Translations under genes and position numbers: made by a program | The notes under the pieces: generated by a model | Seen by the model: the letters and a program-made list of their open reading frames with translations, nothing else | Databases searched by the model: none | What the model was told of the DNA's origin: nothing | Shown: positions 8,731-62,266 of the stretch, one piece after another | Layout: the number at the start of each line of letters is the position of its first letter | How positions within the stretch are numbered: the first letter of the stretch is position 1 | Assembly: GCA_049304275.1 (NCBI GenBank) | Contig: JBAQNZ010000017.1 | Coordinates: 11,890 to 75,889 of the forward strand | DNA: 64,000 bases | From: Candidatus Microsaccharimonas sp. | GTDB taxonomy: Bacteria > Patescibacteriota > Saccharimonadia > Saccharimonadales > Saccharimonadaceae | Direction of reading: 5' to 3'

Positions 8731-11352
8731 TTACTTACGGCCGGACTTACGGTTTTGGCGTTGGTTCTTTTTCTTCTTGCGCGCCGTGTTCTTTTTATGA
8801 TGCGCTTCACTAACGGTAGCGTCTTTTTTGACTGAAAATTCCTTATCGAGGTTCGATGCACCAGAGGTGATCTCGTTCACACCCTTTTCAACCGACGATT
8901 CGGCTAGCCGAGTCAGCTCGGTATCATAATCTTCATCAGTCCGTGCCAATGCGTCGCGAGGAGTAACGTGCATGACTGTTCGAAGCACTTCGTCGCGGAG
9001 CGTCGCCTGCAGACTATCGAATAGTTTCTGCGATTCACTACGGTATTCAACCAGTGGATCACGTTGTCCGACGCTACGCCAGTGAATACCATCACGAAGG
9101 TGCTGCATGTTCTCAAGGTGTTGCATCCAAAGGGTATCGAGAACCTGCAAATACACTTCGCGCTCGACTTTGCGCATCACGTCAGTTTCTAGTTCATCTT
9201 CTTTTTTCTTGTAGAATTTTTGGACGGCTTTTAGAGCCTGCTCAAATCGAGCCTTGTCATTCTTTTCCAGACCGATCACCTTCAGTGTCTTGTCGTCAAT
9301 TGGGAACACGCTCTCGAATTCATCGCGGAAGTTCTTGTTGTTCTTTGCTGGCAGTACGGTTAGTTCACGGACTTTTGCCTCAACCAGTCGTTCAAGTTCA
9401 CTTTTAATGTCTTCCCCGCTAAGGATCTTGCGACGAATCGTATACACCACGCGACGGTGTCGGTTAATCACATTGTCGTATTGCACCACGTTTTTACGAA
9501 TATCAAAGTTGAATCCCTCGACACGTTTCTGGGCGGCCTCAAGCGTCTTTGATACCATACGGTGCTGAATTGGTGTTTCATCGTCCAGGCCGATACGCTC
9601 CATTAGGGCCGAAATTCGCTCACCCTGGAAGATACGCATCAAGTCGTCTTCGGTCGAGACGTAGAATTGAGTTTCACCAGGGTCACCCTGACGTCCACCA
9701 CGACCACGAAGCTGGTTATCAATACGTCGTGATTCGTGACGCTCGGAACCAAGGACAACTAACCCGCCTAGTTCAGTCACGCCCTTACCAAGCTTAATAT
9801 CAGTACCACGACCAGCAATGTTAGTTGCCAGTGTCACCGCACCCTTTTCGCCGGCTTTGTCGACAATGGCCGCTTCACGCTCGTTGTTTTTAGCGTTCAA
9901 TAATTCATAGGGAATCTTTGCCTTGGTTAGCCAATCTGCAATCAATTCGTTTTTTGCAATCGAAGCAGAACCAACCAGAACCGGTCGTCCTTGTTTGTGA
10001 TATTCAGCGATAGCATCAGCGATTGCCTTTAATTTCGCTTTTTCGGTACGGAAAATCAGGTCTTGCTTGTCGATACGTGCGATGGGACGATTCGATGGTA
10101 CCTGAACAACTTCCAAGCTATAGATTTGTGAGAATTCTTCAGCTTCGGTAAAAGCTGTACCGGTCATTCCCGATAACTTTTTATACAAACGGAAATAGTT
10201 TTGGAAGGAAACAGTTGCTAGTGTCATGCTCTCTTGCAAGACAGGAACGTTTTCCTTAGCTTCGATTGCCTGGTGAAGACCTTCGTTATAGCGACGGCCC
10301 TGCATCAACCGTCCGGTAAACTCGTCGACAATAATCACTTCACCTTCCTTGGTGACAACGTAATCTTTGTCGCGGCGGAACAGCGTCTGGGCGCGAAGAG
10401 CTTGGTCCATGTGATAGACCGAACGGACGTATTCAGGGCTGTAGAGGTTTTTGACACCAAGGAGTCGCTGTACTTTATCGACACCATCATCGGTTAGGGC
10501 GACCATACGCCGTTTTTCATCGAGGACATAATCTTCTGGTGTCAACTTAGCTGCTACCTTCGCAAACTGTAGATAACTCTCTGGATTCTCGGCTGCTGGC
10601 GCACTAATAATAAGCGGTGTTCGCGCTTCATCGATCAAAATACTGTCTACTTCGTCGACGATCGCAAAATTCAGATCACGCTGACGCAGTAGTTCGACTT
10701 CGTTTACCATGTTGTCGCGCAGATAGTCGAATCCGAACTCGTTGTTCGTTCCATAAGTAATATCTGCCGCATAGGCTTCTTTACGAGTTGAAGGTCGAAG
10801 CTTCTTGATACGTGGATCATCGTGATCAGGATTGTCGAATGTTGGATCATACACAAATGAGGCTTCATTGATAATTACTCCAACACTCATGCCTAGAAAG
10901 TCGTACAGCTCGCCCATCCAGCCAGCGTCACGCTGGGCCAGATAGTCGTTGACGGTGACGACGTGGACACCTTTACCTTCGAGAGCATTCAGATATACTG
11001 GCAAGGTAGCGACGAGCGTCTTACCCTCACCTGTCTTCATTTCGGCGACATTTCCTTCGTGCAGGACCATACCACCAATCAACTGAACATCGAAGTGACG
11101 CATACCCATGACACGATCACTCGCCTCACGTACCAGTGCAAATGCATCTGGTAATAGGGTATCGAGCGACTGCCCTTTTTTAGAAAGCTGCTTTTTTAGA
11201 ATGTCGGTCTGTTTTCGAAGATCGGTCATTGATAACTTTTTATATGTATCGGTCAGTACATTAATGATATCGACTTTTTTTTGTAGTCGCTTAATGATCT
11301 TCTTTTGTGGGTCACCAAAAATCTTAGTGAGCGCGCCTTGCCTACTTATCAT
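8731..11352 (-). CDS. secA: Preprotein translocase ATPase SecA
   Basis: 873 aa with MKTGEGKTLV Walker A, DEVDSILIDEARTPLIIS, and TNIAGRGTDIKLG. The C-terminus is a Lys/Arg-rich tail without the Cys zinc finger. Confidence 0.95.
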   Translation of the reverse strand: MISRQGALTKIFGDPQKKIIKRLQKKVDIINVLTDTYKKLSMTDLRKQTDILKKQLSKKGQSLDTLLPDAFALVREASDRVMGMRHFDVQLIGGMVLHEGNVAEMKTGEGKTLVATLPVYLNALEGKGVHVVTVNDYLAQRDAGWMGELYDFLGMSVGVIINEASFVYDPTFDNPDHDDPRIKKLRPSTRKEAYAADITYGTNNEFGFDYLRDNMVNEVELLRQRDLNFAIVDEVDSILIDEARTPLIISAPAAENPESYLQFAKVAAKLTPEDYVLDEKRRMVALTDDGVDKVQRLLGVKNLYSPEYVRSVYHMDQALRAQTLFRRDKDYVVTKEGEVIIVDEFTGRLMQGRRYNEGLHQAIEAKENVPVLQESMTLATVSFQNYFRLYKKLSGMTGTAFTEAEEFSQIYSLEVVQVPSNRPIARIDKQDLIFRTEKAKLKAIADAIAEYHKQGRPVLVGSASIAKNELIADWLTKAKIPYELLNAKNNEREAAIVDKAGEKGAVTLATNIAGRGTDIKLGKGVTELGGLVVLGSERHESRRIDNQLRGRGGRQGDPGETQFYVSTEDDLMRIFQGERISALMERIGLDDETPIQHRMVSKTLEAAQKRVEGFNFDIRKNVVQYDNVINRHRRVVYTIRRKILSGEDIKSELERLVEAKVRELTVLPAKNNKNFRDEFESVFPIDDKTLKVIGLEKNDKARFEQALKAVQKFYKKKEDELETDVMRKVEREVYLQVLDTLWMQHLENMQHLRDGIHWRSVGQRDPLVEYRSESQKLFDSLQATLRDEVLRTVMHVTPRDALARTDEDYDTELTRLAESSVEKGVNEITSGASNLDKEFSVKKDATVSEAHHKKNTARKKKKNQRQNRKSGRK

Positions 11353-11437: not shown

Positions 11438-11785
11438 TTAACGACCAGAAACGGTACGACGACGTCCAATATGCGCAATTGTTTCTTGCTTGTATTTGCG
11501 TAGCTGCGACAATAGTTTTGCTTCGACAATATCTACGGCCGCCAGCATGTTAACGGTTGAATCCTTGGCAGTCATTCGTTTATCAGGGACGTTCAAGATA
11601 ACTTCAGCCTCGTATTTGTTACCGTGATCCCTGTTCACTTGTTTTAGTTTCACGTCAACCGTAGCACTTTTTCGAGCGTGCTTTGGTAAAAAGCGGTCCA
11701 GGCGTCCTATTTTGCGCAATACGTATTTCTTCGTCGTCTCATCGATCGTGTACTTTACGCCTGACATGTCAATTGCTGCGATCAT
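11438..11785 (-). CDS. hpf: Ribosome hibernation promoting factor / RaiA family protein (short form)
   Basis: The KYVLRKIGRLDRFLP...EAEVILNVP...TAKDSTVNMLAAVDIVEAKLLSQLRKYK pattern. The ATG at 11785 is preceded by GGAGGA (plus-strand tcctcc at 11791-11796). Confidence 0.75.
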   Translation of the reverse strand: MIAAIDMSGVKYTIDETTKKYVLRKIGRLDRFLPKHARKSATVDVKLKQVNRDHGNKYEAEVILNVPDKRMTAKDSTVNMLAAVDIVEAKLLSQLRKYKQETIAHIGRRRTVSGR

Positions 11786-11864
11786 AGTATTCCTCCGCTT
11801 TTTAGTGCTTGGTACTCTTAGTATACTCCATTTGTCGCTAGTTGTCATTTGCTGGGTTATGTTA

Positions 11865-11870
11865 TATAGT
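11865..11870 (+). promoter_or_regulatory. -10 box TATAGT, 6 nt upstream of the ATG at 11877 (leaderless-type)
   Basis: Sequence tatagt-actcaa-ATG. Confidence 0.4.
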
Positions 11871-11876
11871 ACTCAA

Positions 11877-13265
11877 ATGGCATTTCCAGAGGTCGAAATT
11901 ATCGGTCCACCCACCGAGCAAGAACTTGCAGAAGCAAAACGAGCTCGCGGGTCAGTGGCTTCTTTGTATATCGAAGGGCTAGATGATACTGAACGTCAAA
12001 TGACTCTTAATCGCGCCGACGAACTATTCAAACAAGGCGGCTTCTTGCCTCGAATGGTCGCGATTACTCCTATTGCTGCGCATCAAGAACAACCGCCAAC
12101 CATCCTACAAGCACTTAGCCAATACGCTCGCCAAAAAGATGCTGGCGATTTTTCGATCATTCTTGGCCTGAATTATCCTCCCGAGGAAATGGGCAGCCCA
12201 CAAATTGCTCGTAACTATGATGCTATTTCAAAGGCTAAGAAGCGTTATCCTCGTCTCGATATTCGTGTGCTCGAAGAATGCTATGGTGACTTTACAATGG
12301 GTACGGTGCGTCGAGACTTATGGAACGCGGCGCTCGCTCTCTCTGACCGCCGAACGGCCGAAGTCGGGTTCCAAGAAACACTTGGTATGACCCATGATAT
12401 CGATTTAGTAACAATGAGCCCTCACTTTCTGTATGCAGCCCGAGGCTTTCATACCTCGACGCAACGATATGACTTCTTAGATATGACAGCGTATGCCGAA
12501 GGTCGTGCACGCCCTTTCCGTAGTCGCTCTAAACACGCTTACGATCCTCGCTTTCCAAATATTGGGCGCGCGACAGTCTGGAGTGATGCGATTAGCCTCC
12601 GTTCAGGTGGTGCGTTTGAAGCGGGGACGTTCTTCCCTTTTACCTATTATGCGAAACAAGGTGGGTATGATCCCGAACTGATCATTGCTGAAACACACGA
12701 ATTATATGACCGATCGGGTACACAGTACAGTCCAGAATTTATCGCCTACTCTGGCTTTGATAATGCGTTTACTGAAACCAGTAACCGTCGATACATTCAA
12801 GAGTTACAAACACATGGTCTGGACGGAGTATGGACCGAGGATAATTTTACAAATCGTGACGAATACCGTAGTTCTGTTGATGGATTTACCGACATATCAA
12901 AAGATGCGCTTCGTACAATCGTAAAAGGAAATATCATCGGTAGCGTCGAAAAATTGATGACGAGAAGCACATCAAATGTACTAAATGGTCGATTATCACC
13001 CGATAGCCCTGACCGTGCCGCGCTTCTTGTAAAGCAAGAACTATTATTCGTCGAACGTTTAGTCGGAGAAACACTCGACCTAAGGGAACTCACTTATTTT
13101 ATTCGTAGTGTCTTTAGTGAGCGTATCAAAGGCGCCCGCGATTATCACCTCGATCGCCTCGCAAAACTCGAAGAAGCTCGGCCGTTCGTAGAAAAATTAG
13201 TTCAAGGCGTCCTAGATGACGCTGCGACCGCCCATGAAGGGGCGAAGGACATCAGGAACACGTAG
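11877..13265 (+). CDS. Hypothetical 462-aa protein with a GT-A-like (glycosyltransferase-like) core; paralog of the C-terminal domain of the 1350-aa protein
   Basis: The long ORF's upstream part (11712-11876) is antisense to hpf, so the ATG at 11877 is preferred. The block MVAITPIAAHQEQPPTILQALSQY...FSIILGLNY...THDIDL...GGYDPELIIAETHELYDR parallels MVVIPVSAVGEPENIYKTLSMY...KILLHVNW...RNDADA...GAGSDDLTIGGR in 56030-60082. Confidence 0.5.
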   Translation: MAFPEVEIIGPPTEQELAEAKRARGSVASLYIEGLDDTERQMTLNRADELFKQGGFLPRMVAITPIAAHQEQPPTILQALSQYARQKDAGDFSIILGLNYPPEEMGSPQIARNYDAISKAKKRYPRLDIRVLEECYGDFTMGTVRRDLWNAALALSDRRTAEVGFQETLGMTHDIDLVTMSPHFLYAARGFHTSTQRYDFLDMTAYAEGRARPFRSRSKHAYDPRFPNIGRATVWSDAISLRSGGAFEAGTFFPFTYYAKQGGYDPELIIAETHELYDRSGTQYSPEFIAYSGFDNAFTETSNRRYIQELQTHGLDGVWTEDNFTNRDEYRSSVDGFTDISKDALRTIVKGNIIGSVEKLMTRSTSNVLNGRLSPDSPDRAALLVKQELLFVERLVGETLDLRELTYFIRSVFSERIKGARDYHLDRLAKLEEARPFVEKLVQGVLDDAATAHEGAKDIRNT

Positions 13266-14453
13266 CGTTCCGTCGGGGTTTTGATAGTGCTCTATAACCG
13301 CCACTAGTGAACGTGCTAGCGACACTGCGGTGCCGTTTAATGTATGGAGAATGCGAACGTTTCCATCTTCACCCCTGACGCGAATATTCAAATTGCGGGC
13401 CTGGAAGTCAGTACAGTTCGAAGCACTGGTCAATTCACGGAAGATACCGTCAACTGGTGACCAGTATTCCAGGTCGTATTTTTTACTGGCTGGTGCACCC
13501 AGATCGCCCGCGGCGATATTAATAATGTGATAAGGAATACCAAGGGCTTGCCAAATCTCTTCTTCAATCGCCAGGATTTTTTCGTGCATGTCGATACTCT
13601 GTTCAGGGGTGGTAAAAGCGTACATTTCGAGTTTATTAAATTGGTGAACCCGGAAAAGGCCACGAGCATGTTTGCCGTACGTTCCTGCTTCTTTCCTAAA
13701 TGAAGGGCTCAGGCCAACATATAGTTTCGGCAGATCTTTTTCGTCAATAATTTCATCAGCATGAAAACCTGTAATAGGGATTTCTGCGGTCGCAATCAAG
13801 GTCAGGTCTTCACCCTCGATAAAATATTCGTCGTTCTGGTCGCTGCTGCGAGGCGCAAAGCCAGTACCAGTAGCGGTTCGGCTGTTTACCATAATAGGAA
13901 CGGTCAGGAAAGTAAAACCTTTTTTGGTTACGAGTTCGAGAGCAAATTGGGTAATCGCATTTTCCAGCAAAGCTAGGTCGCCCTTCAGATAATAGAACTT
14001 TGCACCAGCTACCTTTGCACCGCGTTCAAAGTCTACCCAATCACGAGCGGTCGCAAAGTCGAGGTGATCGGTCGCACCTGTCTTGAATTCTCCCCACGTT
14101 TTAATTTCAACACTGTCCTCTTCCCCACCGATAGGAACATCTGCTTGGAGCGTATTTGGAATTGAATTCAATAGATCTTGATACGTAGTGTCGATTTCAG
14201 CAATGCGTGGTTCAATCTCGGCCAGTTGGTCTTTGATTCCTCGTACCTCATCGATGACAGTCTGCTCGGGCTGGCCCTTTAGCTGTGAAGACAATTCGTT
14301 ACGTCGTTCACGCAGGGTATCAGCCTGCTGTTGCAGCCCGCGACGCTCTTCATCGACAGCAAGAAGTTTGTCGATATCGACAGTGTAGCCCTTTTTCTGG
14401 GCATGGTCAGAGACGAGGTCCTTGTTCTCCCGAATAAAACGTATGTCTAACAT
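13212..14453 (-). CDS. serS: Seryl-tRNA synthetase
   Basis: N-terminal coiled-coil arm MLDIRFIRENKD and class II motifs (FRKEAG, RVHQFNKLE, GTAVSLARSLVA). 413 aa. Confidence 0.95.
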   Translation of the reverse strand: MLDIRFIRENKDLVSDHAQKKGYTVDIDKLLAVDEERRGLQQQADTLRERRNELSSQLKGQPEQTVIDEVRGIKDQLAEIEPRIAEIDTTYQDLLNSIPNTLQADVPIGGEEDSVEIKTWGEFKTGATDHLDFATARDWVDFERGAKVAGAKFYYLKGDLALLENAITQFALELVTKKGFTFLTVPIMVNSRTATGTGFAPRSSDQNDEYFIEGEDLTLIATAEIPITGFHADEIIDEKDLPKLYVGLSPSFRKEAGTYGKHARGLFRVHQFNKLEMYAFTTPEQSIDMHEKILAIEEEIWQALGIPYHIINIAAGDLGAPASKKYDLEYWSPVDGIFRELTSASNCTDFQARNLNIRVRGEDGNVRILHTLNGTAVSLARSLVAVIEHYQNPDGTLRVPDVLRPFMGGRSVI

Positions 14454-54382: not shown

Positions 54383-55235
54383 TGAATTCAGTGTTCCTGC
54401 CCTGCAAGCTTTAGTCGATGCTGATTATTCGATCGCCGCGGTTATTACCAAACCTGATAGTAAGCAAGGCCGAGGCCAACAACTCACCCAACCACTAGTA
54501 AAACAAATCGCCCTTGAGCGAGGTATCACTGTTTGGCAACCAACCAAACTGACCGACATCGCAGATGACATCAAGGCACTCGGCCCTATCGCTGGTGTGT
54601 TATCCAGTTATGGCAAAATCGTGCCGCAATCAATCATCGACCTCTTTACGCCGGGGATTATTAATATTCACCCGTCCCTCTTGCCAAAATACCGCGGACC
54701 GTCACCGGTAGAAACCGCTATTTTAAACGGCGACAGCGAAACAGGCGTGTCGATCATGAAATTATCGGCCGCAATGGATGCTGGACCCGTCTATACCCAA
54801 GAAAAATACCCTCTAAATGGTCGCGAGACTGCCCCAGAGCTTCGCAAGGCGCTATCACGAATGGGAAGTCGGCTGTTAATCGACGTGCTTCCAGCGATCT
54901 TAGACGGGTCCTCAGAGGGTATGTTACAAGACGAAAACAGCGCTTCCTACTGCCGTTTGCTGACAAAAGAAGATGCTTTTTTGGATCCTTCAAGTATGGG
55001 CGCCGCAGAAGCCGAACGTCAGGTTCGCGCCTATCTCAGCTTTCCGCGAACAAAAATGACACTTCTCGGTCAAAGTGTCATTGTGACAAAAACTCATGTG
55101 TCAGAGGTGCCAACCTCCCAACTGGATCAGCGAGCTAAAGACGGCAATTTCCTCATCATCGATGAGTTGATCGGGCCATCAGGCCGTCAGATGGATGCTG
55201 CAAGTTTCCTGAACGGTTACGCAGCTGGGGCTTGA
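54351..55235 (+). CDS. fmt: Methionyl-tRNA formyltransferase
   Basis: ILFFGTDEFSVPAL N-terminus and the INIHPSLLPKYRGPSP motif. Follows def. Confidence 0.9.
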   Translation: MSKTILFFGTDEFSVPALQALVDADYSIAAVITKPDSKQGRGQQLTQPLVKQIALERGITVWQPTKLTDIADDIKALGPIAGVLSSYGKIVPQSIIDLFTPGIINIHPSLLPKYRGPSPVETAILNGDSETGVSIMKLSAAMDAGPVYTQEKYPLNGRETAPELRKALSRMGSRLLIDVLPAILDGSSEGMLQDENSASYCRLLTKEDAFLDPSSMGAAEAERQVRAYLSFPRTKMTLLGQSVIVTKTHVSEVPTSQLDQRAKDGNFLIIDELIGPSGRQMDAASFLNGYAAGA

Positions 55236-55660
55236 GGGGCTGGACCACCCAAAATCGCGTCTTTATTCGCCATGATTTCTTTTTTAATTTCTTCAAGGGT
55301 CCGCGCTACGACGTCACGGTAATCTGGTCGATTCACTTCTAGCCATTTCGTTGCCGCGTATTCAGCCCGTAGGCCTGGATCGTCAACGGCCATACCACTG
55401 GCCTGTTGCAAGCGCTGAAAAATTTGCTCTTCCCTATAATTAGGGGCGTGGGTCGCTAACCAAGGGGTGATAATCTCGTCCTTGCGGTCAATAATGCCTT
55501 CAAATTCATCAAGCTGGGCTTCGGTCATCCCCTCGCTCAATCGAACACCGACTGTCTCTTCCAATCGGGTATACGTATACTGTAAAAATGGTTTACGTTG
55601 GTCTTCGGGCATTTCCCCCAAGCCGACGTCGATAAGAAATTGATCGTCTAATTGAAACAT
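55217..55660 (-). CDS. Helical hypothetical protein (147 aa); paralog of 60088-60408
   Basis: It starts MFQLDDQF and contains MTEAQLDEFEGII. Compare MDQLDAF and LTDEQLDEFNEHM in the other copy. Confidence 0.5.
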   Translation of the reverse strand: MFQLDDQFLIDVGLGEMPEDQRKPFLQYTYTRLEETVGVRLSEGMTEAQLDEFEGIIDRKDEIITPWLATHAPNYREEQIFQRLQQASGMAVDDPGLRAEYAATKWLEVNRPDYRDVVARTLEEIKKEIMANKDAILGGPAPQAPAA

Positions 55661-55696
55661 GCTGTTCTCCTAGACCTATTCTATCAGATGAAGAGG

Positions 55697-55975
55697 CTAA
55701 TTTGAATTCGACTGATCGTCTTGTTGTTCTTGAGGCTGATCGAGTTCGATTTCAATCTCATCAAGCAGTGACATCATCGCTTCGAGGCGTTCGCCTGAAT
55801 CCTCGATTGCGGTAGCGCTATCATAGGCTTTTTGATACATTGCTTGGTCAGCGTTTCCTGACTGGATTAAACGAAGAATAAGGGAGAATTTATCAGAACC
55901 AGTATCGGCTCCATCAATAATAAGGGGAACGACGTCGCCCAATATTTTCTGGCGCAGTGCCTCTAACTCTTCCAT
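55697..55975 (-). CDS. Small acidic hypothetical protein (92 aa)
   Basis: ORF directly downstream of the 1350-aa gene. Helical and acidic, with a Q/D-rich tail. Confidence 0.45.
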   Translation of the reverse strand: MEELEALRQKILGDVVPLIIDGADTGSDKFSLILRLIQSGNADQAMYQKAYDSATAIEDSGERLEAMMSLLDEIEIELDQPQEQQDDQSNSN

Positions 55976-56029
55976 GATCTATACCCTCCCGTTTTAACTT
56001 TCATTATTGTATCATATTGCTCGCGGTTA

Positions 56030-59000
56030 TTATTGAACGAACCGTGGTTGAGTCGATACAGCCTGACGCTTCTCGGTGTTCTCACTGTAAAGTTGGCGCC
56101 TTACACGAGAACCGATGTGATCAAATTGACCATTATTACCACGTCGCAAGCGATTCGCAACCCATTCGGCACCCTTCGGACTAAACGTGAACGTTGCTTG
56201 GCCACCAGCCCTACTCATTCGATAGGTCGGTTCACCATCAATTTCAATTGGCAACATCATGGCAAGTGCACTACGGACCAAGGCTGAGTCAATCGAGTTA
56301 CCGTGCCAACGACGGAGCATTGAACTAATATTTTTTTCAATTCGTTCGATAACAACACCCTTGTCATCGTTATGGAGACTTTCATTGTGCACACCGACAC
56401 CTGCAAGACCAGACGCCCTGTCGCTGTAGCCACCCGCATCAAAACGCGACCATGTATCGCCAATGTCGTCGTTAAGGTAAGCAGCTTCAAGGCGATCACC
56501 CTTACTATCAATACCCGCACCAGAAACGAGGCGATGGAATTTATGAGGAGTCGATGAGTCACCTGCTGACGTGTAACTCGTCCTTCTTTGGCGACGACGT
56601 GCATAACGACGACTAGTGCCGTAACTTCCACGGCGAGCGTCTCCTACCCTTCCACCAATTGTTAGGTCGTCAGAACCTGCACCAGTGTCTCGCGGATCAT
56701 GACCAGCACCACCCACAGCAGCAAAGGCGGCCATTTTCACGGCGGCATTAATACCTACCGTTTGTGGTGCACCTTCTGAACCGCTTCGGTGAGAAGCAAT
56801 TTGAATGACTTCCTTAAAATTAGCAACGAAGGCAAAGCCGGGGAGATCTTTATGACGGTCGGTATCCCAACGAATCGCACCAGTAAAGACATCATTTTCA
56901 GGATGTTCTTCAGCGGTTTGAATCATACGCTGCAGGTAACGACGGTCCATACCTTGCGCATCAGCATCATTACGAATCATCAAGACATCTCGATCGCTTG
57001 GAATAATACCCCGACGCATTTGATCTTGAACACTCAACATCGCTGTGTCATACAGTTTACGCGTGACATGACCAATTAATCCGTTTCCGTAACCACCACT
57101 ATCAAGCCGCGTCTGGCTCCAAACCGTTTGAATTGTAGCAATGCTCAGACCAGGGAAGTCAGCTTGGGCACGAGCAATCTCGGCCCGAGTCCTTGCAATT
57201 GCCGCTGACTTCACAGGATCAGATTCAGCACTATCTACCCAGTTAACATGAAGGAGTATCTTTGTTTGACTCTGCGTATCAGGATCTTGTTGACCATACA
57301 TTGAAAGAGTCTTGTATATGTTCTCTGGCTCTCCTACCGCACTTACCGGTATAACCACCATGGCCTTTAGTTCAGGATTAGGAGCTTGGAGTTCAGGACT
57401 CGAAGCGATAGCTTCATTAATCTCATTAACATATTCTCGACCAGCAACATCAGCAAGTTTGCCACGATACCAATCGAGTTCTTGTTTCGGATTCAAACGA
57501 GCTTCAGGATCATCCAGAAGTCGAGGCGACGTTTCGCGACGACGTTGTTCAATTTCACGCGGCGTAAGGTATTCTGACTCTCCATAGTAGTATCCTCTTC
57601 GACGGCTACGGACTGATTCAAGTGATCGACGTGAATCAATCGGAATGACTGGTGCAGCTTCAGTGAAGTTTTCAACCGTGGTGTTATAGCCATCAGTTGT
57701 GACGGTATACATCGCATGGTGTTCAGTAACCGTTGTCGTCACCGTATCGGTGATCGGCCCTGCTTCACCATCGCCTACCATTGTCGCCAGTGGGCGTATA
57801 TGAACGGTTCCGTCAGTATCGACGCTAGTGGTCTGAACCACTTCACCGTATTGGCCATGGAAGACAACTTCGTTATTTTCATTCGAGAAGAAGTGCCCAG
57901 CTGGACTATCTTCGGGAATATTAATCGCCCCATCAGGTCCGATAGGAATCATAAAGACATGTTCTTGGGTATCGACTGTTGCAGATACAGCGAAGAATAA
58001 ATTGCCACTAGCTGCGGCTTGGTTCCAGTCAACTTGTTCACCACCCTGCCATGAGCCATCAGGATGCATACCAGCCGTCGTATATTGGAAGCCACCAGGA
58101 ATGATACCAGGAGCCTCGGCCGCACCACCACGATAGACGCGAAGCTCGTTTTGGTCATAGACCCCAGGGGTATCGTTACCGTACCACAGGTCACGTTGGA
58201 CCGTCGTTGCCTCGGCCATGTGATTTTCGACGAATCCATGCGCATCCACCACTTCTGTCGTCGTCACGGTGACGTCTTGATCAAACGAGTGATCCTCAAC
58301 TGCCATACCGACAGCTTCAAGTTGATCAATCGAAGTATCAGGGAAACTCCCGTCTTCATTGATAGCTAAGTTTTCAACCGTCGCGTGACCGTTACCATCA
58401 ACAAAGTTAACGGTACCATCACCATTCTCAATTAACTCGTGATCATTCGAGAGTAAGATCTGGCCATTGCCACTTTCGGCAGTCGTGTATGAATCAAACG
58501 TATTTGATGCATCAGTGTGAATAATACGATCATCGCCTTCAACGAATCCCTCGAGTAAGGTTTGGTGCTGTAGACCATCGGCAGAAATTTCATTGTGTGC
58601 GCCCCAAGCTTGTTCAAACAAACCAGCCCGAGCCGGATCAAGCGCAGCTATTCCCTCTTGGACTATCAGTCCACCAGCAAGTCCGGTTGCAACACCAACA
58701 GCCGCAGCTTTGGCAACGCGACGGGCTTTGAGGATCTTGAACGCTTTATCTTTGGCAGATATGTCTTCGTTCAATAGTTCAAGATAAGTAGTGGATTGTT
58801 CATCTACTAATTCTGCCACGGACGCATCCGGATCAAGTCCAAGTTCACGCCGAGCATCCTCATTCAAGCGAGATTCAAGGGCAACGCGCACTTCAGCCCG
58901 AGCAAGGTCCAGCCCCATACGCTCATCACCGATTGCCGCAGCATTTGAATAACTAATGAGGTCAATGTTTTCACGGTTCGAGAGGTCAATACGTGATTGA

Positions 59001-60082
59001 ACTTGGGCAAGTGCATCAAGTGCAGCGCGTACGGCGTCGTTGCCCTGATCCATCGTTTCAGGGTTACCAGCTGCACGAATAAAGTCAGTGAGATCTTGAG
59101 CGCTTCGTGATTCGTAGCGTGTTTGTTCCATCTGTTCACGACGAGCATCACCTGGACGAAATTCTTTGCCTTGGGCCATTTCGCGCGAGTGCTGACCTCG
59201 TTCGTCTTTAACCCGTTTGTTCTCGCGGATACCTGCCCATACACCAGCACCAACACCAGGTGCAACTGTTTTTAGTACCGCACCCGTCACTGACCGGCTT
59301 CCCCATCCAGCAACGGTCGCCGCGGTCGTCGCGATCGCTGTAACTGCTTCCGGCCCAAGTAGTGAGCCAAGGCGAGTTTTAGAAATCTTATCGATCGCCT
59401 TGTCTACCATGTTGTAGCGAGCTTCGGTACGTGCATTATTGCGCGCCTCACCGGTCACTACTTGCATGTTCGCCAGCACATGATCAAGGCTCTCGCCGTG
59501 TTCAACCGCCCCGCGTACCGCTTGGGCAACTTGCATCATATTGGAGGTCGTAACCAGTCCTTCACCAAAGGCATCTTCACCATGGGTTTCGCGGTAGGCC
59601 TGCATAAAGCGAGTCTGCTCTTCACGGAGGGTGACATCATTCAGTTCACCCGAGGCATATCGTCGCAGTAATTGCTTGAATCCAGTACTAACTTCAGTAT
59701 CTTGTTCGTGAACCTCGCGACGCTCACCAGCATCCTCATGAATTACCTCGTCGTATTCAGAACTAAACCGTTCAAACGTCGATTCCATGGCACGGGTTCG
59801 TTCGGCCTGTGTCAGGCCTTGCTCATGCATTAATACGTTTTGCGATTCTTCGATCGATTCGCGCGCTTGCCTGGTATAACTTTGACGATAAAACTCTCTG
59901 GCAATGTTACCCTTCCAGATACCATTAACAAAACGTTTGAAACGTCCGCCCTGCTCAAGTTCTTCACTTAGTCGCGTATCAGCGCGATCACGAGCAGCAT
60001 CATGCGCATCTCGAGATTGGTCGACAAGAACCAGCTTTAGTGGCTCGGTTGTTTCGGTCGACGGAGGAGCTGCCTCTGACAT
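56030..60082 (-). CDS. Giant (1350 aa) multidomain protein: charged helical N-region, Gly/Ala-rich hydrophobic segments, Thr/Asp/Gly-rich beta-like middle, C-terminal GT-A-like domain
   Basis: Uninterrupted 4053-nt ORF. Hydrophobic segments AVTAIATTAATVAGWG...GAVLKTVAPGVGAGVWAGI and AAAVGVATGLAGGLIV. The C-terminal block MVVIPVSAVGEPENIYKTLSMY...RNDADA...GAGSDDLTIGGR is GT2-like (beta1, DxD-like, ED-like). Confidence 0.7.
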   Translation of the reverse strand: MSEAAPPSTETTEPLKLVLVDQSRDAHDAARDRADTRLSEELEQGGRFKRFVNGIWKGNIAREFYRQSYTRQARESIEESQNVLMHEQGLTQAERTRAMESTFERFSSEYDEVIHEDAGERREVHEQDTEVSTGFKQLLRRYASGELNDVTLREEQTRFMQAYRETHGEDAFGEGLVTTSNMMQVAQAVRGAVEHGESLDHVLANMQVVTGEARNNARTEARYNMVDKAIDKISKTRLGSLLGPEAVTAIATTAATVAGWGSRSVTGAVLKTVAPGVGAGVWAGIRENKRVKDERGQHSREMAQGKEFRPGDARREQMEQTRYESRSAQDLTDFIRAAGNPETMDQGNDAVRAALDALAQVQSRIDLSNRENIDLISYSNAAAIGDERMGLDLARAEVRVALESRLNEDARRELGLDPDASVAELVDEQSTTYLELLNEDISAKDKAFKILKARRVAKAAAVGVATGLAGGLIVQEGIAALDPARAGLFEQAWGAHNEISADGLQHQTLLEGFVEGDDRIIHTDASNTFDSYTTAESGNGQILLSNDHELIENGDGTVNFVDGNGHATVENLAINEDGSFPDTSIDQLEAVGMAVEDHSFDQDVTVTTTEVVDAHGFVENHMAEATTVQRDLWYGNDTPGVYDQNELRVYRGGAAEAPGIIPGGFQYTTAGMHPDGSWQGGEQVDWNQAAASGNLFFAVSATVDTQEHVFMIPIGPDGAINIPEDSPAGHFFSNENNEVVFHGQYGEVVQTTSVDTDGTVHIRPLATMVGDGEAGPITDTVTTTVTEHHAMYTVTTDGYNTTVENFTEAAPVIPIDSRRSLESVRSRRRGYYYGESEYLTPREIEQRRRETSPRLLDDPEARLNPKQELDWYRGKLADVAGREYVNEINEAIASSPELQAPNPELKAMVVIPVSAVGEPENIYKTLSMYGQQDPDTQSQTKILLHVNWVDSAESDPVKSAAIARTRAEIARAQADFPGLSIATIQTVWSQTRLDSGGYGNGLIGHVTRKLYDTAMLSVQDQMRRGIIPSDRDVLMIRNDADAQGMDRRYLQRMIQTAEEHPENDVFTGAIRWDTDRHKDLPGFAFVANFKEVIQIASHRSGSEGAPQTVGINAAVKMAAFAAVGGAGHDPRDTGAGSDDLTIGGRVGDARRGSYGTSRRYARRRQRRTSYTSAGDSSTPHKFHRLVSGAGIDSKGDRLEAAYLNDDIGDTWSRFDAGGYSDRASGLAGVGVHNESLHNDDKGVVIERIEKNISSMLRRWHGNSIDSALVRSALAMMLPIEIDGEPTYRMSRAGGQATFTFSPKGAEWVANRLRRGNNGQFDHIGSRVRRQLYSENTEKRQAVSTQPRFVQ

Positions 60083-60087
60083 CGTAT

Positions 60088-60408
60088 TTAGGCCTCTTCA
60101 CGCTCCTGCGCGGGTTGCAGATACAAGTCACGGAATTTCAACATCGCTTTGGCAGTTACCCGTTCGATATCGACACCATGTTCAACCAGAAACTTTTCTG
60201 GGGCGTCGTCAGGTAAGTCAGGCTGGTCCATATGCTCATTGAACTCGTCGAGTTGCTCATCGGTAAGTTCTTCAAGGAGAGCTCGGTCGACTTGATCGAG
60301 TAACTGCTTGCGCAAGTCCTCAAGAAGACTGGCTTTGACTTCGTCGTTGATGCCAGACAGTTGTTTTGCATCGATAATCTCGGTGATAAAGGCGTCGAGC
60401 TGATCCAT
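60088..60408 (-). CDS. Helical hypothetical protein (106 aa); paralog of 55217-55660; translationally coupled to the giant gene
   Basis: The ATG at 60408 has AGGA 9 nt upstream. Its TAA stop lies 5 nt before the ATG of the 1350-aa gene. Confidence 0.5.
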   Translation of the reverse strand: MDQLDAFITEIIDAKQLSGINDEVKASLLEDLRKQLLDQVDRALLEELTDEQLDEFNEHMDQPDLPDDAPEKFLVEHGVDIERVTAKAMLKFRDLYLQPAQEREEA

Positions 60409-60493
60409 ATGTTTTATCCTGCTTTTGTTTATTTCATATAATGCTGGTGTCATTATAGTATTGCTTAAAAACAATTACAACGTTTTTTTAAGA

Positions 60494-62266
60494 TTACGAG
60501 AGGGTACGTACGACGACTTCACGAGTGAAGCACGACAGTATGTCACCCTCTTCCAATAAAAGTTTCTTGTGAGTTTTCAGATTCACTCCACACATATCGC
60601 CTTCAAAGACTTCCTTGGCCTCAATTTTCTCACGTTGGACACTGGTCAGTTCGGCTTCACCAATAACTTCATCGCCGCGTTTTACTCGAACTAATAGCCC
60701 GCTTGTCAATTTACCACTCTTGACTTCGCCACCAGCAATAACTTGGTCTTTTAAGGTTCGGAAAATACCCTTAATTTGCAGGGTCCCAATTTCAGTTTCA
60801 ACCACTTCAGGGGCAAGTAGTTTTTCCATTGAGTTCTTTGCGTCATCAAGAAGTTCGTAAATGACTCGATATAAACGGACTTCAGCCCGTTCGCGGGTCG
60901 CCAGGCGCTTTACCGCAGGGGGAAGATCAACGTTAAATCCGTAAATAACGGTTTTACCATCTGCCGCCAAGCGGACATCGTTTTCGGTGATATTTCCAAC
61001 ACCACTACTAAGGATGTGGAGTGCTACTTCACCACCCGTTTCAATCAATTTCAAGCTATCTAGGACAGAGGTCAGTGAACCTTGAACGTCGGCTTTGACG
61101 ATCACATTAAAGTCTTCACTCTCGTGTTGTTGGGTCATCAGTTTGAGAAGGTCAGCACTGGTCGTATTACTACTGGCGACGTTTCGTTCGTTTTCGATAC
61201 GAGCCGTAGCCACACGAGCTCGGGCTTCCTTTTCAGTCGGAACCATTTCAAAATAATCACCAAACTGTGGCAATTCTTTAAATCCAGTAATTGTTACAGG
61301 AGTTGATGGACCGGCTTGTTTGATTGGCTTGCCAGTGAAATCAAGCATGGTGCGAACTTTTGCGTAGGCGGTTCCCGCAACGAGGAATGAACTTGGCTTT
61401 AAGGTGCCTTGTTCAACCAAAAGTCCCACAACAGCCCCACGACCAACTTCCATGTGCGACTCAATCACCAACCCTTCGGCCGGGATCGCTTCGTCTGCTT
61501 TTAGTTCCTCAAGGTCAGCGACCAGTAGGACCATGTCCAGCAGTGTGTCGATACCCTGTCCGGTCTTAGCACTAACTTCCACCATGACGGTGTCGCCACC
61601 CCATTCTTCTGGATTCAAATTGTGTTCAGTTGCCAGTTGAGTTTTAACCAGTTGAGCATTGGCGGTTTCTTTATCAATTTTGTTAATAGCCACGACGATT
61701 TTGGCGTTAGCCGAACGAGCAAAGCGAATCGCTTCGATCGTTTGTGGCTTGACGCCGTCGTCAGCGGCAACAACAATAATGACAACGTCGGTCAGCGCGG
61801 CACCGTGTTGGCGGAGGGCAGCAAATGCCTCGTGACCAGGAGTGTCCAGTAATGTAATCGAACGACCCTTGCGAACCGTCTGATACGCGCTAATGTGCTG
61901 GGTAATACCGCCGGCTTCACCGTCGACCACTTTTTGTTCCAAAATAGCATCCAGCAAGCTGGTTTTACCGTGGTCGACGTGACCCATGACCGCCACGATT
62001 GGTGCGCGGTCAACGGCTTTGTCTGATAGTTCATGAACGCGTCGTTCGCTGACTTCCGAACCATTTTCCTTTTTCTGTAACTCAACGTCCAGGCCAAGTT
62101 CTTCAACGATAATCGTCGCGGTCTCAAAGTCGATACGCTGATTAATCGTTGCGGCAATACCGTTCTTAAATAGCTCTCCGACAAGTGTTGTGACGGAAAG
62201 ATTTAGCGCTTCGGCTAGTTCACCCACAGTGATCGAGTCAGCAATGGTCAGTACTTTTTCAGCCAT
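60494..62266 (-). CDS. infB: Translation initiation factor IF-2 (short N-terminal region)
   Basis: G-domain [24 protein letters not shown] and NKID. 590 aa. Confidence 0.95.

Follow-up and report, generated by a model that had tools for sequence, protein, structure and literature searches.

A DUF5663 protein paired with the core of a 1350-residue, glycosyltransferase-like protein in Candidatus Microsaccharimonas and other Patescibacteria: a candidate membrane-proximal platform

Directly 3' of infB, a 64,000-nucleotide stretch of DNA from the saccharibacterium Candidatus Microsaccharimonas sp. (Saccharimonadia, Saccharimonadaceae; contig JBAQNZ010000017.1; the whole stretch is called the window) carries four minus-strand open reading frames (ORFs) that encode a small acidic DUF5663 protein (small A), a giant protein of 1350 residues, a second small acidic protein ('ac') and a DUF5663 paralog of the first (small B). 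The conserved unit of this locus is formed by small A and the N-terminal core of about 830 residues of the giant protein, and the glycosyltransferase (GT) domain at its C-terminus, hereafter the head, is an exchangeable accessory, which turns a set of hypothetical proteins into a defined and testable target. The DUF5663-core pair matches no described system, and in the literature searched no paper names these genes, or DUF5663, in its text. We favour a module of vertical inheritance, characteristic of Patescibacteria if not confined to them, over a secreted toxin. Tentatively, we regard it as a membrane-proximal platform that acts cell-autonomously, carries a GT2-like head and has DUF5663 proteins as partner subunits.

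Patescibacteria represent a large share of bacterial diversity, and most of their lineage-specific essential genes are without known function. The module described here is widespread and tightly organised, and it appears to be essential in the only Saccharibacterium amenable to genetics.

Conservation of the small A-core pair

An exhaustive phmmer search with residues 1-830 of the giant protein retrieved 1023 clusters, represented at 50% identity, with E<=1e-3; 595 of them reach E<=1e-30. A scan of GTDB species genomes located the corresponding loci on contigs that bear the labels Saccharibacteria, Moraniibacteriota, Doudnabacteria, Nomurabacteria and Parcubacteria. A word-indexed homolog search yielded 111 full-length relatives, all named as Saccharibacteria and none with a Pfam domain, and a second run of it, started from a core alignment spanning several phyla, added nothing to this set.

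The distance between the small A and core genes was measured in 29 distinct loci whose core gene is complete. In 28 of these, the gap between the end of small A and the beginning of the core gene is -11 to +40 nt, and the median is about 5 nt. An earlier reading of the window from its letters alone (the original prediction) had placed the stop of small A 5 nt before the giant gene, and this is indeed the spacing between its TAA and the ATG of the giant protein. The pair persists amid wholly different neighbours, which include a two-component system, adk-map, ClpB, YceG and SPFH, and no consistent neighbours were found outside Saccharibacteria. Conservation of the upstream small gene beside orthologs of the giant protein holds well beyond that phylum. 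Within Saccharibacteria, the order infB, small A, giant, 'ac', small B and convergent fmt-def-priA is kept in S. aalborgensis and others at 36-42% identity, and the locus is present as a single copy per genome, fixed between infB and fmt-def-priA.

Two contigs that carry the pair bear the labels 'uncultured Gammaproteobacteria' (L019) and 'uncultured Bdellovibrionales' (L037); these bins are probably contaminated or mislabelled. All other loci are labelled Saccharibacteria, other Patescibacteria or plain uncultured bacterium. A phage or mobile-element origin was considered and rejected, as no relatives of the core occur on viral contigs in IMG/VR, the GC content is ordinary and no defence or phage family is matched.

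The syntenic region of Southlakia contains, in order, infB, SEML1_0161 (767 aa, hypothetical), SEML1_0162, SEML1_0163 and fmt (Wang et al. 2023, PMC10633639). SEML1_0162 and SEML1_0163 are DUF5663 proteins, and both genes are flagged as Patescibacteria-enriched core families (PMC10633639). SEML1_0161 is, by its position, the putative homolog of the core. The syntenic genes are essential or growth-defective according to transposon sequencing (Tn-seq), with the calls GD/ES/ES for SEML1_0161, GD/ES/ES for SEML1_0162 and NE/GD/GD for SEML1_0163 (PMC10633639, Table S1).

Gene models and selection

The original prediction had listed four co-directional genes downstream of infB, and the ORF listing reproduced their coordinates and lengths, with all four on the minus strand (Table 1). 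The giant protein is 100% identical to the hypothetical protein WA030_01615 from a Candidatus Microsaccharimonas sp. metagenome-assembled genome. The promoter-like element upstream of small A falls within an alternative, TTG-extended ORF, a position that speaks for the ATG at 60408 and for a protein of 106 residues. This length is likewise supported by orthologs of about 100 residues and by the NCBI model, which is also 106 residues long and is named a DUF5663 protein.

Table 1. Features of the locus and the stand-alone paralog of the head, in window positions. AF2, AlphaFold2 model; HMM, hidden Markov model; pI, isoelectric point.
Feature	Position	Strand	Description	Basis
infB	60494-62266	-	directly upstream of small A	
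Promoter-like element	60452-60480	-	sigma-70-like, TTGTAA-17-TATAAT (10/12), between infB stop and small A start	consensus match only
Small A	60088-60408	-	106 aa, acidic (pI 4.16), helical, DUF5663, motif LTDEQLDEF	ORF
Giant protein	56030-60082	-	1350 aa, core of ~830 aa (N, M and B domains) and GT2-like head	ORF
Domain N	59348-60082	-	residues 1-245, charged, mostly helical	AF2, alignment, HMM mapping
Hydrophobic segments 1 and 2	59228-59353	-	residues 244-285, PEAVTAIATTAATVAGWGSRSVTGAVLKTVAPGVGAGVWAGI	translation
Domain M	58583-59347	-	residues 246-500, best-conserved part	AF2, alignment
Hydrophobic segment 3	58640-58717	-	residues 456-481, glycine-zipper-like	translation
Domain B	57593-58582	-	residues 501-830, acidic (pI 4.2), beta-rich	AF2, alignment
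Junction motif	57617-57652	-	residues 811-822, PVIPIDSRRSLE	translation
Head	56033-57565	-	residues 840-1350, helical linker and GT-A/GT2-like domain	AF2, Foldseek
DxD motif	56960-56968	-	D1039-A-D1041	translation (DAD)
'ac'	55697-55975	-	92 aa, acidic helical protein, pI 4.05	ORF
Small B	55217-55660	-	147 aa, DUF5663 paralog, pI 4.48	ORF
Stand-alone head paralog	11877-13265	+	462 aa, DxD is D-I-D	head HMM, BLASTP

Ratios of nonsynonymous to synonymous substitution rates (dN/dS) were computed against a congener (L007), whose giant protein is 86% identical. The values are 0.013 for small A, 0.065 for the giant protein, 0.062 for 'ac' and 0.023 for small B, and the head alone gives 0.084. Because of these low ratios (about 0.01-0.08), all four ORFs are recognised as real genes under strong purifying selection. 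The small proteins are 97-98% identical between the congeners.

The GC content of the locus is no different from that of the rest of the window. The 3' end of small B overlaps the 3' end of the convergent fmt by 19 nt (55217-55235), and the sole strong terminator-like hairpin on the minus strand, with 11 pairs, is located at 55055-55082 within the fmt coding sequence. No tRNA genes (ARAGORN) and no Rfam families at the gathering threshold were detected in the window.

The small DUF5663 proteins and 'ac'

The two small proteins that flank the giant protein and 'ac' had been proposed to be paralogs because of shared short motifs. Their direct BLASTP comparison is marginal (E 0.002). The upstream-type and downstream-type orthologs were aligned separately, which avoids circularity, and an HMM of the upstream-type orthologs only matches all 11 of the 11 downstream-type proteins (E 5e-8 to 4e-5). 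The hhalign comparison of the two types gives a probability of 95.9% and an E value of 5e-9 over 71 columns. The similarity of small A and small B is thus present at the profile level, and both are paralogous members of DUF5663. Small B matches the Pfam model (PF18908) with 65 bits (E 9.5e-18; cut-off 23.7 bits); small A, with 20.1 bits, is under this gathering cut-off and is matched by the family profiles at E 1e-37. The Pfam match is found in 28 of 31 orthologs. The motif [ML]T[ED]xQLDEF, which is LTXXQ-like, is kept in the upstream and downstream groups, and small B carries an insertion of about 35 residues relative to small A.

The bracketing of the giant gene by two copies of this family, as initially described, applies to part of the Saccharibacteria only, where small B is encoded downstream in 11 distinct loci. 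Small B is absent from loci outside that phylum, and the universal partner is the upstream copy. The protein 'ac' was considered as a third DUF5663 paralog and ruled out (hhalign probability 0.3%). It constitutes its own family, whose profile matches 17 loci and the groundwater contig L042 described below, and which is seen only beside GT2-like heads. All three small proteins are acidic, with pI values of 4.05-4.48.

The DUF5663 small-protein family expands locally, and overall it comprises at least 4311 clusters. Extra DUF5663 genes are located between infB and small A in other Saccharibacteria (L003:4148-5590; L001:4257-5464), one of which encodes a 480-residue protein with a C-terminal DUF5663 domain. 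S. aalborgensis has a third DUF5663 gene (103 aa) on the opposite strand, beside a 278-residue protein without a Pfam domain.

Structural matches reported for SEML1_0163 are the LTXXQ family and a trigger-factor C-domain-like fold (PMC10633639, Table S2). Our DUF5663 profile meets trigger factor in the PDB only weakly and without significance (E 0.35). The DUF5663 proteins resemble the Spy/CpxP (LTXXQ) and trigger-factor C-domain chaperones in being small helical proteins with an L/M-T-x-x-Q motif. By contrast, Spy and CpxP are periplasmic, and the DUF5663 proteins start with MDQLD or MFQLD and have no hydrophobic leader or signal peptide. No LTXXQ or Metal_resist Pfam match was obtained in them, and only the short motif is common.

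The conserved core of the giant protein

Residues 1-840 were modelled by AF2 with a predicted local distance difference test (pLDDT) score of 82.6. Residues 1-481 are helical in the model, including a 60-residue helix that ends in the third hydrophobic segment, and residues 505-808 are beta-rich, so that both the helical N-terminal region and the beta-looking region of the original prediction are seen. Across phyla, W56, R105 and E120 of domain N are invariant. Domain M contains a pair of Gly/Ala-rich helices, a helical bundle, the 60-residue helix and the motif RENKRxK[DE]ERxQHxRE. This motif, placed after the second hydrophobic segment, is the most conserved of the giant protein, and 16 sequences drawn from several phyla all share E287, K292, R295, Q297, H298, R300 and E301. 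The motifs of domain B include WYxNDTP...NEL and LATxxG. The junction consensus PPVIPxxGRRPLE is present in 15 of 16 diverse cores and closes the core before the variable head; it could be a hinge, a docking or a processing site. In the giant protein of the window it stands directly before an Arg/Tyr-rich linker and the head.

A search of the N-terminal 840 residues with Foldseek revealed no match below E 0.35 in the PDB or 0.056 in BFVD; the rows for Mgm1 and BAR domains are weak and not significant and were not used. The core has no sequence or profile match in the PDB, and PDB sequence searches with the giant protein and with the core, head and DUF5663 profiles gave nothing significant. Among Pfam, NCBIfam, PADLOC and PHROGs, DUF5663 is the sole match of the five proteins of the window. 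The original prediction, which recognised no known system of such composition, holds in this respect: the core is without a match in Pfam, NCBIfam, PADLOC, PHROGs, the PDB and BFVD.

The original prediction had considered two Gly/Ala-rich stretches as possible membrane hairpins. Three such segments, with GxxxG patterns, keep their position in 16 sequences from several candidate phyla. Their hydrophobicity is marginal: crude Hessa sums range from +2.5 to +7.5 kcal/mol in the 16 homologs, whereas control transmembrane (TM) helices give -3 to +2.5 kcal/mol. In the giant protein of the window, segments 1 and 2 have crude insertion energies of +6.8 and +7.5 kcal/mol and AF2 pLDDT values of 56-67, and segment 3 has a Hessa sum of +3.9 kcal/mol with near-invariant Q475 and E476. 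The Kyte-Doolittle maxima of the Gly/Ala-rich segments are 1.2 and 1.76. The placement is thus conserved, and the segments are at most candidate membrane hairpins. No hydrophobic segment is present C-terminal of residue 481, and no N-terminal signal peptide is apparent from the sequence of the giant protein.

The glycosyltransferase head

The AF2 model of the head, obtained with 75 homologs, has a pLDDT of 91.5 and a predicted template modelling score of 0.92. The top 26 Foldseek matches in the PDB (E<=1e-3) are all GT-A enzymes, mostly of family GT2, and comprise hyaluronan, chitin and cellulose synthases, PcManGT, GlfT2 and TarP, with E values down to 5.5e-6. The template modelling scores (TM-scores) of 0.3-0.36, with root mean square deviations (rmsd) above 12 Å, indicate that this structural likeness is a generic GT-A fold similarity. 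Within Saccharibacteria, sets of 35 and 76 sequences show no variation at either aspartate of the DxD motif; in the comparison across phyla, D1041 remains invariant and D1039 almost invariant. The acidic GxGxD motif (D1138), N1112, R1150 and R1197, which are putative catalytic residues, are invariant or nearly so across phyla. The GT-A-like C-terminal domain with an NDADA landmark, as first noted, is thus confirmed in the model, the matches and the invariant DxD. On this basis, the head is a divergent, GT2-like (GT-A, DxD) glycosyltransferase of a known superfamily, with a predicted activity.

The likeness to GT2-family GT-A enzymes such as TarP, PcManGT and GlfT2 (PF00535/PF13641) comprises the predicted fold, the DxD and a G-x-D acidic motif about 100 residues past it, and some relatives reach a Pfam cut-off. 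The homologous region of one of them, P0188, scores 24.4 bits with Pfam Glycos_transf_2 (cut-off 23.3), and the separate GT of L042 has weak precomputed GT2 matches. By contrast, the giant protein of the window and most relatives score below all Pfam and NCBIfam GT models. The head further differs from the GT2 enzymes by an Asn (N947) at the first nucleotide-binding acidic position, by a helical N-terminal linker of about 60 residues and a C-terminal extension of about 200 residues, and by its fusion to an 830-residue core without known relatives.

Exchange and fission of the head

The domain organization of the giant protein was mapped in 237 relatives. A GT2-like head follows the N, M and B domains in 199 of them, and 32 combine the three domains with other tails. 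A GT9 head (PF01075, E 1e-9 to 8e-15) occurs in several clusters and loci, a DnaJ J-domain head in one cluster, and P0212 (889 aa) consists of the core without any head. For seven further tails Pfam gives no match. In some long members the GT2-like head is followed by a Ser/Thr kinase, a calpain cysteine protease, a DUF362 domain or a weak, sub-threshold HopA1-like match. These additions are positioned at residues 1479-1727 of P0215, 1438-1536 of P0223, 1351-1553 of P0198 and 1403-1510 of P0188.

A head of about 500 residues of a Moraniibacteriota type, encoded at L035:1868-3763, L040:6366-8087 and L041:7323-8957, shows an invariant D-H-H motif among many other invariant positions. Neither Pfam nor the PDB sequences match it, which makes it another uncharacterised enzyme-like domain.

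Aah and TibC are autotransporter heptosyltransferases, stand-alone, GT9-related protein glycosyltransferases that modify a neighbouring adhesin. The GT9 heads of some relatives would similarly fit the cytoplasmic glycosylation of a protein or lipid acceptor. In contrast to Aah and TibC, the GT is here fused to a platform, and no adhesin partner is evident.

The groundwater contig L042 (4195-9333) encodes the core (889 aa) and the GT (426 aa) as adjacent separate genes, and the split GT is matched by the head HMM with an E value of 4e-41. Such a split speaks for joint action of core and head. Small A is encoded nearby, and a small-B type gene upstream and an 'ac' homolog downstream are both on the opposite strand; all five components are thus retained, in a rearranged order.

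Interpretation of the module

In the platform model introduced above, the acidic small A, translationally coupled to the platform protein of about 830 residues, would form an obligatory pair with it. The platform would be composed of the helical N domain, the M domain with its three glycine-rich hydrophobic helices and the beta-rich B domain, and would bear an enzyme at its C-terminus, which in Saccharibacteria would be a divergent GT2-like glycosyltransferase. The heads need nucleotide sugars, ATP or DnaK, and the C-terminal half is therefore most simply placed in the cytoplasm. From this we infer that the glycine-rich helices are monotopic, re-entrant or oligomerising rather than three spans. 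As anchors or through oligomerisation, they would keep the platform on the cytoplasmic side of the membrane and would not carry the C-terminal half across. The head would then transfer sugar from a cytoplasmic nucleotide sugar to a membrane-proximal acceptor, such as a lipid carrier, a glycolipid or an envelope protein, and the DUF5663 proteins, joined by 'ac' in Saccharibacteria, may act as stoichiometric chaperone or adaptor subunits. An envelope-related role is possible. If the GT head does modify the envelope or scavenged lipids, the module would bear on how these cells, which lack lipid synthesis of their own, make a surface.

Several points weigh against this model. Membrane association is deduced from marginally hydrophobic segments, and if these were three true spans the positive-inside rule would place the head outside the cell. 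The part that is conserved is the core and not the GT: 32 of the 237 relatives are without a GT2-like head and the syntenic Southlakia gene encodes only 767 residues, so that the primary conserved function of the module cannot be glycosylation. SEML1_0161 is itself a putative homolog, linked to the core by synteny alone. No acceptor is pointed to, and no envelope-synthesis gene is consistently near the loci examined. The fold hints speak weakly for a chaperone role of DUF5663.

It is conceivable, if a little less probable than the platform with a GT2-like head, that DUF5663 and the core constitute an undescribed, Patescibacteria-defining essential platform with new folds, of which its own activity and not glycosylation is conserved. 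Such a platform might serve membrane remodelling, lipid scavenging or cell-surface assembly for an epibiotic, ultrasmall lifestyle, and the lineages would have plugged differing enzymes onto it (GT2-like, GT9, J-domain, kinase and protease).

The original prediction had compared the giant protein with secreted effectors, toxins or envelope-remodelling machines and regarded it as a prime candidate for host interaction. In an effector akin to a polymorphic toxin, the module of about 830 residues would serve delivery or membrane insertion and the C-terminal enzyme would act in the host cytoplasm, with the DUF5663 proteins as secretion chaperones, and 'ac' would inhibit the GT head or confer immunity to it. 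The combination of a constant N-terminal part with exchangeable enzymes at the C-terminus is in line with this proposal, as are head types that resemble effector repertoires, the weak HopA1-like match included, and the confinement of 'ac' to the neighbourhood of GT2-like heads. The glycine-zipper-like helices, taken as spans, would leave the C-terminal half outside under the positive-inside rule. The giant protein evolves faster than its surroundings (39-42% identity versus 55-86% for the neighbours), and Tn-seq essentiality in co-culture is equally compatible with host interaction.

The small acidic helical partners encoded upstream also resemble chaperones such as those of the LXG-Lap systems. 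LXG polymorphic toxins of Firmicutes are substrates of type VIIb secretion and have small helical Lap partners. Likeness is found in the small acidic helical proteins encoded just upstream of a large protein, in the helical N-terminus and exchangeable C-terminal enzyme of the latter, and in a small gene after the large one. The giant protein differs from the LXG toxins by the lack of an LXG or WXG domain and by heads that are stable over long distances, and its locus is single-copy, syntenic and under purifying selection.

Despite these likenesses, an effector is unlikely. The giant protein has neither a signal peptide nor a domain of secretion or trafficking recognisable in Pfam, NCBIfam, PADLOC, PHROGs, the PDB or BFVD. 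The locus occupies a fixed syntenic place in one copy per genome, and the same head type is shared by 199 of the 237 relatives. With a dN/dS of 0.084 for the head and 97-98% identity of the small proteins between congeners, no arms-race pattern is visible. Because of the single-copy synteny, the purifying selection, the stable head type and the missing signal peptide, and because there are no relatives on viral contigs, no matches to defence or phage families and only cytoplasm-type enzymes among the identifiable heads, we do not retain the effector claim of the original prediction. The core is moreover found without a head in P0212 and possibly in SEML1_0161.

Somewhat less probable still is a soluble cytoplasmic platform for protein biogenesis or quality control, on which the DUF5663 proteins would be trigger-factor- or Spy-like holdases and the heads, be they a protein GT, a J-domain, a kinase or a protease, would act on protein clients. 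The recurrent neighbours infB, rbfA, fmt, def, map-adk and ClpB belong to translation and maturation, which is consistent with this idea; however, synteny is generally high in Saccharibacteria, fmt-def-priA is convergent and not co-transcribed, and the contexts outside that phylum are heterogeneous. A J-domain head exists, but in a single cluster. The LTXXQ motif of DUF5663 and the chaperone-like fold matches of Wang et al. (PMC10633639) point to a holdase, yet the similarity to trigger factor is not significant (E 0.35). The poor scores of the hydrophobic segments as TM helices would also suit a soluble protein.

The least probable alternative, a synthase-type polysaccharide machine whose GT2 head polymerises a glycan that is exported through its own oligomerised glycine-zipper channel, is suggested by the processive membrane GT2 synthases among the best Foldseek matches of the head (8smn, 7wjo and 5ej1) and by the three conserved GxxxG-rich helices with their invariant Q475-E476 pair, but it is opposed by the generic GT-A likeness (TM-scores 0.3-0.36, rmsd >12 Å), by the replacement of the head by a GT-B (GT9) or J-domain, or its absence, and by a sequence that, unlike the processive GT2 synthases, has no conserved QxxRW (the sole RW, in MLRRW at about residue 1258, is not conserved) and no TM helices flanking the GT, the hydrophobic helices being placed 360-600 residues upstream of it, with the B domain in between, and none following residue 481.

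A stand-alone paralog of the head

The C-terminal domain had also been described as recurring in a separate protein of the window, and this could be verified for its Rossmann half. The head HMM matches the ORF 11712-13265 with an E value of 7.8e-10 over HMM positions 68-211, which correspond to the Rossmann half including the DxD; this profile match covers that half only. BLASTP of the head against the stand-alone paralog gives 26% identity over 207 residues (E 0.003), and the paralog has no Pfam match. The ORF at 11712-13265 (+) is a longer version of 517 residues with a TTG start, which would overlap the opposite-strand gene of a 136-residue protein (11438-11848, -) by 137 nt, an overlap that is avoided by the ATG at 11877. 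The paralog is encoded near secA (8731-11352) and adjoins serS (13212-14453).

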